Positions 57,471 through 60,400 of a DNA stretch of 64,000 nt are shown piece by piece (the stretch's first letter is position 1; every line of letters starts with the position of its first letter). Location of the stretch: positions 4,614 to 68,613 of the forward strand of contig JBGGMV010000037.1 in the NCBI GenBank assembly GCA_041287865.1, in the 5' to 3' direction. The position numbers and the translations under genes are program-made. The stretch is from Alphaproteobacteria bacterium. Its GTDB lineage: Bacteria; Pseudomonadota; Alphaproteobacteria; Micavibrionales; UBA2020. The notes under the pieces are model-generated. The model did not search any database, was not told where the DNA came from, and saw only the letters and a program-made list of their open reading frames with translations.

Positions 57471-60400
57471 TTACGGTTTTGGCGCGGGCGGCCTTGGCGC
57501 CGCAGGCCTTTTTTCGGGCGCCGCGCCGCCTGCTGCGGCAGCGCCCCTGGCATGGCCCGCATGGAACTGCGACTGCCCCGGCGCGGGACCGCCCTTGAAT
57601 TCCCGCACTTCACGCTTGAACAGCTCGATCTCGCGCAGCGCCCTGCGCAGCTGGGCGGCTTCTTTCTTCGCGTCCTCGATCTCGCGGGTATTGAGCCTGC
57701 CGCCGAAGAAGCTTGTCACCGCCGCGATCTGCAGCACCGGCTTGCCCGCCTTGATCAGGTCATCGTCCTTTTTAAGCTTCCTGTGGATCGCGTCCTCGAA
57801 AGCCTTGAGGTTTTTCGGGTTGGTGAAATCGACCTCGCGCAGGTTCTTGATATGGCCGTCGGGCGTGCGCGACAGTTTTCCGTCTATGGCCTGCGTCGGC
57901 GTGCTTTTCAGCACATAGGCAACGGCGGGCAGGGTCTTGAAATGGTAGATCGAGGGCTTGACGGGCGCGGGCTTCGGCTTGTCGAGCTGCTGCTGCAAGA
58001 GTCCGACCGCGGCTTCGCCCAGCTGGCGGATGCTGGATTTTTCAGGCGCGTATTTTTCGCCGACGGTGCGGACCGTCAACTCGCGCACCGCTTCGCGCGC
58101 GGCGTCGCCAGCGCCAAAGCCGAAAAAGCCGGCCGCCGTTTCCGCCACTGTCGCCACGGCCTCGGCACCCGCCTTGCCGTATTCGCCTTTGTACAGGTGC
58201 GAGCCGACGTTATAGGCCCCGTACCCGAAGCTCACCACGCTGCCGACGACCGGGATTTTCCGGCTGACAAAGCCCGCGGCCTTCGCAAGGGGCGCCACTT
58301 TTCGCGTAAACGACGCCACCGCTTTGTATGTTTTGGGCGACAAGGCGACGTCGGTGAGGGCGCTGACGGTCGCGCCCTTCACGTCGCCCTGCGCCAGCTG
58401 CAGGGCGATCGACGCGCCGCTGGTCGCATGGCCGCCATGGCGGTCGAGCTTGGTGCGGACCCCGCCGATGCGCGAGACGACGCCCGGCTTGGCAGCGCCG
58501 CCGCCTGATCCCGCCTGCGGCGCGGCCGCCTTGCGCGGTTCGGGGGCTTCTGGTTTCGGGGTGGGCTTGGGCGGCGCCGCAGCTTTCGGCGGCGCGGCGT
58601 CAGCCTTGGGCGGCGTTTTGCGCGGCGCAGCGCCACCGGCATCGCCGTCCGAATCGTTTTTCGGCGGCGCGGGTTTGGCGGCAGCGGGCTTCGCGGCTGG
58701 TTCTGCTGCGGGTTTGATCTCCGGCTTGGCATCCGGCTTGAACACAGCGGCGGGATTTTTCGCGCGGGCAAGGTCGACGTCCCGCGTGGCAATATGGTCA
58801 AGTTCCGCGCGCGCGACCAGCTTCACGGGTTCTGCGCCCGGCACGGCCTCCGGTAAATGTTTTGCGAGCGCGTCGGATACGTCTCCCGCGCCCACCTCGT
58901 GCCCCACGCCGTCGAAAACGGCCAGCAGGACGCTCTTGCCCTGCAGGTCGGTGTTGGTGTCGAGCCGCAGCACAGCCGCTGTCGTGTTATCCTTCGATCC
59001 CAGCGCGGTCGCGCGTTCCGACAGGAAACGGGAAATATCCGCCGTTTCCGGATTGGATTTCAGGTGGGCTTCGAGCTCGATCCCGAGCGCTTCCTGGAAG
59101 CTCTTGCGCGTATCGCCTTCGCCCCGCGCCGGGCTCTTCGTATAGCCATCGATGACGCCGTCGGAAATATTGATGACGAAAGCCTTCTCGCCGGCGGGTA
59201 TATCGATGCTCTTGGTCAGCATGAAATTCCCGCCGCGCTGCGCGCCCTCGCCGAAGCCGGTTGCGCCTTTCATACTGGCCGGCGCCTTCAACTCCTTGCC
59301 GTTGACGTCGTAGATCGAGACGTTGTTGTTGGCGTCGACGCTGGCGATCAGCGTGGTTGAATCGCCGCGCAGACCGGCCACCAGATCAAAAGACGCCATG
59401 CCGGGCTGTTTCGCCTGTTTTTGCGTGATAGCGGCAAGAGAGCCCGTGGAATCCTTGTCGTAATCGCCGCCCGCCGTCGCATTGCCGCGATCGCTGAGCG
59501 AATCCATGATGCGGCCGAGCCCTGCTTCATCGATGGGTGTTTTGGTGGTGACGACGGCATAGGTATCGGCCTGACCCGCGTTGGGTACCACCTTGCCGTC
59601 GCGTACATCCACGCCGGATGTCAGGTATGTTTCGACAACGGCATTGCCCGCCGCATATCTTTCGATGACGTCCCTGGGCAGTTGGGGCGCCTCCGGCACG
59701 ACAGGTTTTAGCGGCGCTTTCGTGCGCAGCTCTTCCGCCTGCGCGGTCACGCGCGCCTCCGCCTCGGCCATCAGCGAAGGCTTCGCAAGCTCGGGCGTGT
59801 CCACTTTCGTGGGGTTGCGGACGATGAATTCGGCCTGCGCGACGTAATCGGCCCTGCGGTCTGCATCCAGCAGGCGCGCGGCAAGATCCGGGGCGCCGGC
59901 TTCGCGCGTCGTGCCGTTCAGGCGGTTTTCGGGTCCGGGCGCGCCGACCTGCAGCCTGTCGGGGCTGGAATATTTCGTCGATTGAAGCTCGATCGGCGTG
60001 CGCACGGTCTTGGGCTGGCCGTCTTCGCCCAGCACGGGCACGGGGTAGCCGTCGGGGCCCATGATAACTTTGCCATTCGCATCGCGCTCGACGATAACGG
60101 CCTCGACCTCGCCGCCGGAAAGGCGCAACAGGTCCAGCGGCCTGTCTTTTTCATCCTTCGGCGGGGGCACGAAGACTTCGGGCGCGCTGTTTTCGACCCA
60201 GCCCATGCGGTAGGGGCCCTTCTGGTAGAAACTGTCGGCGACGACATATTTCGCGGGGCCGCCGTCTCCTGCGAAGCGCACGACGTTGTGCATATGCGTT
60301 TCGATGGTCTGCGGCTTGCCGTCCGCCGCCGCGACGAATTTTCCGTCTTTCGTCATCAGCGGATTGTATTTATCCGGCACCTCGACCGCCGCGCGCACCT

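Follow-up and report, generated by a model that had tools for sequence, protein, structure and literature searches.

Few signalling enzymes have been studied as thoroughly as the PPM (PP2C) phosphatases, whose eleven motifs are taken to occur in one strictly colinear order. To our knowledge, the strand-helix unit that carries the DGxGG motif (β3-α1) follows motif 1 in every described PPM. A 64,000-nucleotide stretch of an alphaproteobacterial genome (Micavibrionales; contig JBGGMV010000037.1, positions 4,614 to 68,613; hereafter the window) raises the question of whether this order can change within the fold. The window encodes, at 57471-62249 on the minus strand, a hypothetical protein of 1592 amino acids, a large multidomain protein with a complete open reading frame according to the open reading frame list, the translation and its orthologues. 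In this protein the initial annotation had noticed PP2C-like motifs in an apparently permuted order, and had suggested a circular permutation of the PPM fold or a split arrangement. We report that residues ~857-1165 probably constitute one autonomous PPM-fold domain whose β3-α1 (DGxGG) unit now lies, by transposition, at the end of the core. Homology and the changed order of motifs are well supported, and what would be new is a non-cyclic rewiring within the known PPM fold.

A divergent PPM domain with motif 2 behind motif 11

The span in which the motifs had been noted (58845-59597) corresponds exactly to residues 885-1135, and string positions in the translation confirmed all five quoted motifs in the order claimed, with the DGxG-like motif behind the DN motif. 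GQADTYAVV occupies residues 892-900 (59550-59576), LVAGLRGDSTTLIA residues 956-969 (59343-59384), FVINISDGVID residues 1024-1034 (59148-59180), ALGSKDNTTAAVLRLD residues 1082-1097 (58959-59006) and LLAVFDGVGHEVGAGDVSDALAKHL residues 1108-1132 (58854-58928). The true domain slightly exceeds this span, at residues ~857-1165 or ~310 amino acids (58755-59681), as delimited by the extent of homology, AlphaFold2, Foldseek, hhalign and the gap in one orthologue (L002). This domain and all features of the protein described below lie on the minus strand.

Within the domain, candidate motif 1 is GQAD (residues 892-895; 59565-59576), with the invariant D895 at the start of a predicted strand. It is followed by RGDS (residues 961-964; 59358-59369), which aligns to VGDSR, corresponds to the canonical GDSR turn and has in its invariant D963 a candidate third-metal ligand. 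SDG (residues 1029-1031; 59157-59165) aligns to CSDGL as the counterpart of motif 8, with D1030-G1031 invariant, and the invariant DN (residues 1087-1088; 58986-58991) aligns to GG.DNITv as the counterpart of motif 11. Behind it stands a strand-helix block (residues 1100-1138; 58836-58952), TDLQGKS-VLLAVFDGVGH-...-VSDALAKHL, in which F1112-D1113 is invariant and which HMMER, hhalign and AlphaFold2 identify as the counterpart of canonical β3 (DGxGG) and α1. The motifs of the domain run 1, GDS, 8, 11, 2, and depart from the canonical colinear order.

HMMER, run in full against 1.84 billion representative proteins, returned 15 true relatives (E 4.5e-109 to 2e-8), matched over the same ~310 residues every time. 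These are unnamed or "hypothetical" singletons from metagenome-assembled genomes (MAGs) or metagenomes; two further entries (P0016 and P0017) were weak repeat-protein matches and were discarded as chance. The family alignment comprises the window domain and the 14 relatives with a full-length domain (P0001-P0014), with a 154-residue fragment (P0015) omitted. At pairwise identities of 30-60%, D895, D963, D1030-G1031, D1087-N1088, F1112-D1113 and H1152 are invariant across this alignment. Judged from the aligned sequences, the invariant aspartate set and the discreteness of the domain mean that the motif pattern is not due to chance. Pfam, NCBIfam, PADLOC and PHROGs all lack a model for the domain. 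A word-indexed protein search with the region and the family alignment as queries found no relatives; the exhaustive scan found 15, so this indexed negative is not readable as absence. The whole protein gave no match to plasmids in tblastn, and in phmmer against PDB sequences it gave low-complexity matches to its Pro/Ala-rich linker only.

When the family profile was compared with PDB sequences, 40 of the 41 matches at E<10 were PP2C phosphatases (best E = 0.0024), including ABI1/HAB1/OsPP2C50, tPphA, PPM1K and CaMKP. The HMMER sub-alignments placed profile positions 240-260 (the FDGvGh block) on PP2C chain residues 55-85 (DGHGG), positions 98-113 (GDS) on residues 154-169, and positions 196-235 (DN) on residues 287-326. 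Since, in the PP2C chains, the FDG block maps to residues ahead of those matched by GDS and DN, the order of motifs has changed in the family. A canonical reference was assembled from 37 sequences, namely two bacterial PP2C genes found with tblastn and 35 Stp1/IreP-family proteins with PF13672 and PF00481. Against this reference, the native family aligned over 122 columns that begin at the GDS turn and end with the DN strand, with an hhalign probability of 96.2% (P = 2.4e-9). By these profile comparisons, the region is a genuine but very divergent PPM/PP2C homologue.

AlphaFold2 prediction with the 15-sequence alignment reached a predicted local distance difference test (pLDDT) score of 91.4 and a predicted template modelling (pTM) score of 0.91, whereas prediction from the single sequence (pLDDT 36) was uninformative. 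In the numbering of the model, where residue 1 is residue 854 of the protein, four short strands precede D42, which is followed by strand 43-49 and helix 55-73. Strands 81-91 and 99-108 lead to the RGDS turn with D110, behind which come strands 112-118 and 124-128; strands 156-164 and 169-175 then lead to D177-G and three helices. D234-N is followed by strand 236-244, an 8-residue loop and strand 253-261, which ends in F-D260-G, and the chain finishes with helix 270-282, hairpin 286-297, H299 and helix 304-311. As modelled, the domain has the four-layer α/β/β/α PPM fold class with two antiparallel sheets. In a Foldseek search against the PDB, 48 of the 50 top matches were PP2C (E down to 6e-5, probability ~1.0), with PPM1K, PPM1B, PPM1A, Wip1, HAB1/ABI, tPphA and SpoIIE among them.

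The displaced motif was also moved back in silico. In every sequence, the C-terminal block (TDLKG...FDGxGH...LSSxLA...PG) was excised and put back directly behind the GQAD strand. The re-inserted family aligned to the canonical reference over 203 colinear columns, compared with 122 for the native one, with an hhalign probability of 96.9% (P = 1.6e-10). This alignment pairs QAD with NED, FDGvGH with ADGMGGH, lSs.LA of the following helix with EVASk.A, and STG with GTT. In HMMER, PPM1K residues 30-260 were matched in a single stretch after re-insertion, and E fell from 0.029 to 0.00063. The true block at two sites just behind the GQAD strand gave hhalign scores of 78.3 and 79.2. The controls gave 70.0 with the block deleted, 70.1±0.1 (maximum 70.2) with 60 column-shuffled blocks at the same site, 70.1 with the reversed block, and ≤71.6 with the true block at 70 other sites including the N-terminus. 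At the level of these alignments, colinearity with the canonical profile was regained only by moving the block.

Several observations weigh against a transposed and functional PPM domain. The Foldseek template modelling (TM) scores are low (0.25-0.45), which fits a non-sequential topology but equally a poor match; low values are expected where a sequence-ordered aligner is applied to a fold with changed connectivity. The Viterbi gain on re-insertion is modest (+8 to +9), and was seen at insertion columns 63 and 65 and lost at 64 and 66. Taken alone, the block is placed best by hhalign at motif 2 and α1 of the canonical profile, with P = 0.03-0.04, and is too short for significance of its own; a block-only profile gave chance-level matches to PDB sequences, the best being RibF, not a PP2C. 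The N-terminal part alone gave no significant hhalign alignment to the canonical profile, so that motif 1 is without independent support and we infer its identity with GQAD from invariance and position only. For the phosphate-binding arginine located five residues before the motif-1 aspartate (R16, invariant in the canonical set), the family has no conserved basic counterpart, and the canonical DH and RAxG motifs are absent from it in the alignments with the reference. Among the gene neighbourhoods of six relatives, there was no conserved kinase, FHA, secretion or other signalling partner. Finally, no PP2C family was detected when the whole protein, the region alone and three single sequences re-permuted by hand were scanned against Pfam with hmmscan. 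PF07228 was touched by 2 of 15 members at E ~1e-3, below the Pfam threshold, in the native and re-inserted sets alike, which makes the per-member Pfam test non-discriminating. The comparison of native and re-permuted sequences with PPM families, which the initial annotation had proposed, thus came out differently at two levels, with no hit for single sequences in Pfam and PP2C found by the profile-level comparisons.

Candidate metal site, architecture and cellular role

The residues that match the PPM ligand set form a complete and invariant, if non-canonically ordered, predicted metal site. They are D895 of motif 1 (a putative equivalence), D1113-G1114 of motif 2, D1030 of motif 8, D1087-N1088 of motif 11 and D963 of the GDS turn. 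The five invariant aspartates and the glycine carbonyl would bind two or three Mn2+/Mg2+ ions, and the bound ions would activate water to hydrolyse phospho-Ser/Thr, as in PstP, tPphA and PPM1A. On balance, we lean towards a domain that binds 2-3 Mn2+/Mg2+ and hydrolyses phospho-Ser/Thr. Behind the transposed block, the domain ends in an extension (residues 1139-1165; 58755-58835) that the family alignment and AlphaFold2 delimit as a β-hairpin and helix, with H1152 invariant and R1156 near-invariant (ELDHIATR; family motif ELDHIxTR). Speculatively, H1152 and R1156 of this extra hairpin-helix might stand in for the canonical phosphate-binding arginine or for a general acid.

The rest of the protein consists of three parts. 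The N-terminal 850-residue region (59700-62249) is 80% identical to that of a full-length orthologue (L001), is missing in the short family members, and has no Pfam match and no PDB sequence match, profile search included. By eye, its Cys/His/Asp pattern (GIGDC557RHVAAATEAL ... ETH652MH654N ... VVAD672SFYQ) recalls transglutaminase- or papain-like cores. Downstream of the PPM domain lies a Pro/Ala/Lys-rich low-complexity linker (residues ~1166-1270; 58440-58754), recognized in the translation and matched in the PDB by low complexity only. Next comes a conserved C-terminal module, rich in Gly and moderately hydrophobic (residues ~1271-1418; 57996-58439; GDVKGA...IPVVGSVV...GFGAGDAAREAVR...YAPEKSS.RQLGE), delimited from the sequences of relatives and from hydropathy. 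The module has no Pfam or NCBIfam match and is common to nearly all longer family members. Its pattern GD.xGA ... K.P..G..V..G ... GFG.GD.ARE.VR ... YAP.KSGLR.LGE is the constant part of P0002, P0003, P0005, P0010, P0012 and P0013, and its one moderately hydrophobic segment could be a membrane hairpin or a glycine zipper.

In most relatives, the PPM domain stands at the extreme N-terminus of a protein of 300-750 residues, and the Pro-rich linker and the Gly-rich hydrophobic module follow it. The short relatives resemble PstP in having the domain, a Pro-rich linker and a hydrophobic segment, with hydropathy peaks of 1.3-2.1. A PstP-like PP2C-family gene on an Actinomyces oris plasmid has its catalytic domain, Pro-rich linker and hydrophobic segment laid out in the same way. 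By analogy with PstP-type phosphatases, the short members may be tethered to the membrane. The window protein differs from the PstP layout, with a hydropathy peak of only 1.1 and the additional 850-residue N-terminal region.

The domain is modular. A genome scan found a full-length orthologue of 1581 residues in an "uncultured Micavibrio sp." MAG (L001, 8001-12746; 68% identity) and an orthologue of 1275 residues in an Alphaproteobacteria MAG (L002, 7836-11663). The latter lacks residues ~862-1150, which is the PPM domain from its PRDV start, while both flanks are conserved. In P0002 (744 residues; L006, 4506-6740), the PPM and C-terminal modules are present without the N-terminal 850 residues. 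A divergently transcribed AhpC/TSA peroxiredoxin gene marks the locus in the window, L001, L002 and L006, so that one orthologous locus has three architectures, full in the window and L001, without the PPM domain in L002 and without the N-terminal region in P0002. These three architectures suggest that domains were gained or lost at precise boundaries. With the PPM domain missing in L002 and the N-terminal region missing in P0002, the domain behaves as a movable cassette. An apparently conserved upstream open reading frame of 167 residues (62430-62933, minus strand) was rejected as the antisense shadow of the peroxiredoxin gene (62499-62990, plus strand).

The window is otherwise ordinary chromosome, with genes for RNase E, SAH hydrolase, ribonucleotide reductase, RadA, Der and BamB. 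Three ankyrin-repeat genes occur within the 64 kb, at 15747-17774 (plus), 56898-57470 (plus) and 62992-63813 (minus), of which the last two flank the large gene; none is conserved beside the L001 or L002 orthologue. Several ankyrin-repeat proteins together are unusual in bacteria and are often tied to interaction with eukaryotic cells. Beside two relatives, there are genes with a weak PDEase_I (3',5'-cyclic-nucleotide phosphodiesterase) hit and two genes with a TPM_phosphatase domain (L010, 5256-6884; L003, 1869-3244), a setting that is not family-wide.

This context bears on two possible roles. The protein may be a housekeeping regulator of the PstP type, tethered to the membrane of its own producer, or else an effector that a predatory or host-associated bacterium secretes or injects and whose phosphatase acts on prey or host proteins. 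The effector role is conceivable but doubtful. It would fit the Micavibrio label of the closest genome, the modular and shuffled architecture with its constant C-terminal module, the ankyrin-repeat genes, two of them flanking, and the eukaryote-like PDEase_I neighbour of one relative; no N-terminal signal peptide was seen when the sequences were read by eye. However, no secretion-system genes lie nearby in the window or in the relatives' neighbourhoods, the gene sits among housekeeping genes, the layout of the short members mirrors that of the Actinomyces oris PstP-like gene, and the Micavibrio label comes from a MAG title only.

A second question is whether the domain is an enzyme of this kind at all. 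We consider it unlikely that it is a PP2C-fold pseudo-enzyme which, like RssB or TAB1, serves in binding or regulation, or an enzyme acting on another, non-phosphoprotein substrate. RssB has been cited as a non-catalytic PP2C-fold protein (PMC5468089). The missing phosphate-binding arginine, DH and RAxG, the high divergence with no Pfam match above threshold, and the lack of a neighbouring kinase in the six relatives' neighbourhoods all favour such a reading. Against it, the five ligand aspartates, the glycine behind the motif-2 aspartate and the asparagine of DN are invariant at 30-60% identity, which is typical of an active rather than a decayed metal site.

A probable segment transposition within the PPM fold

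It could also be argued that the C-terminal FDGxGH is a chance look-alike, that the PP2C core has lost motif 2 and that the last 60 residues are an unrelated extension. We regard this as very unlikely. The marginal P value of the isolated block against motif 2 and the preference of a plain sequence search for RibF are what such a look-alike would show. On the other side, F-D-G is invariant in all 15 aligned sequences, and the block is confidently predicted to fold as a strand and helix contiguous with the DN strand. Its best place in the 287-column canonical profile is exactly motif 2 and α1, and the score was raised only by the true block at the canonical site and by none of the 60 shuffles. 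Without β3, moreover, the sandwich would miss an interior strand of sheet 2 (topology after PMC3517971).

A true circular permutation, with the cyclic order kept and the termini relocated, would likewise set motif 2 behind motif 11, as in a permutant with its termini between α1 and α2, but is highly improbable, since the 8 residues between the DN and FDG strands cannot house β1-β2 and motif 1, the invariant GQAD and five β-strands stay N-terminal, and the block placed at the N-terminus gains nothing (hhalign score 69.9), with a gain only behind the GQAD strand. The split arrangement was rejected as well, the unit being contiguous, confidently folded in the model, and either kept or missing as a whole in orthologues. 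What endures of the initial annotation's interpretation is a genuine PPM/PP2C domain with motif 2 behind DN and not behind motif 1. Because the cyclic order is broken (1, GDS, 8, 11, 2), the rearrangement amounts to the transposition of a segment, not to a circular permutation.

For this transposition, a path of the chain can be proposed. The colinear part (the first helix, STG strand, RGDS hairpin, SDG strand, helices and DN strand) would represent α2 and β4-β10 of bacterial PP2Cs. The DN strand would run away from the metal site, the 8-residue loop would turn the chain, and the VLLAVFDG strand would return. Judged from the strand directions and the short loop, this return would put D1113/G1114 at the end of the sandwich shared with D1087, D1030, D963 and D895; the exact three-dimensional position of the moved strand is a matter of prediction.

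The PP2C domain of SpoIIE, described by Levdikov et al. (PMC3517971), offers a framework for this path. Its sheet 1 has the strand order β1-β10-β9-β6-β7 and its sheet 2 the order β2-β3-β4-β5-β8, with β3 and β4 separated by α1 and α2. Mn is coordinated by Asp610 (motif 1), Asp628/Gly629 at the end of β3, Asp746 and Asp795 (PMC3517971). From these strand orders, β10 (DN) and β3 (DGxGG), each second in its own sheet, would face one another across the sandwich if β1 lies over β2. With these two strands facing, the DN strand leaving the metal site and β3 approaching it, a distal loop of 8 residues could join them and place D1113 beside D1087. The SpoIIE crystal contains a domain-swapped dimer in which β1-β3 are supplied in trans and the hinge lies between β3 and α1 (PMC3517971), and the PPM fold therefore tolerates altered connectivity around β3/α1.

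Full-text literature searches on permuted PP2C/PPM turned up no description of such a domain, in keeping with the initial annotation, which knew of no described example. The sole related statement found is that of Bradshaw et al. (PMC5468089), who invoke a hypothetical circular permutation between PP2C and proteasomal proteases.

Relation to known systems and implications

The family shares with Stp1/IreP, PstP and tPphA (PF13672, PF00481, PF07228) the sandwich fold, the colinear counterparts of GsT, GDS, SDG and DN, and the ligand aspartates. Unlike these bacterial PP2Cs, it has the DGxGG strand and α1 behind DN, additional strands at the N-terminus, and at the C-terminus a hairpin-helix that bears an invariant histidine. 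Human PPM1K (PP2Cκ; 2iq1, 4da1, 6ak7) is the best match in the PDB, both for the re-inserted profile (E = 6e-4) and in Foldseek (E = 6e-5), but it is only ~13% identical, its motif order is canonical, and the sequential TM-score is only ~0.3.

As in the swapped dimer of the SpoIIE phosphatase (PMC3517971), β1-β3 with the motif 1 and motif 2 aspartates would be reachable by another chain connection. The gene order of SpoIIE is canonical, however, and its swap occurs between two chains of the crystal, whereas the family would have a single-chain rewiring in which β3 and α1 moved together. Circularly permuted enzymes and the proposed link between PP2C and the proteasome (Ntn hydrolase; PMC5468089) are comparable in that homologous folds have a changed order of elements. 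Both of these keep the cyclic order, while the family breaks it and appears to keep the PP2C metal-ligand residues.

Taken as a whole, the evidence tips somewhat in favour of the first natural PPM/PP2C with a non-circular β3-α1 transposition and a complete Mn2+/Mg2+ site that is active. It would belong to an unmodelled cassette family, shuffled in Micavibrio-like Alphaproteobacteria among large proteins of an effector-like or membrane-tethered kind.

Profile libraries that assume colinear motifs miss this family completely, and order-dependent homology searches can overlook real enzymes. If the transposition is true, it would be a rare documented change of topology in an enzyme fold with the active site kept, and would bear on fold evolution and on the PP2C-proteasome proposal. 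The helix α1 is one of two "switch" helices that regulate PP2C activity, and its new position in the chain could alter regulation of the enzyme. A hidden phosphatase would then have been flagged in poorly known, possibly predatory Alphaproteobacteria.

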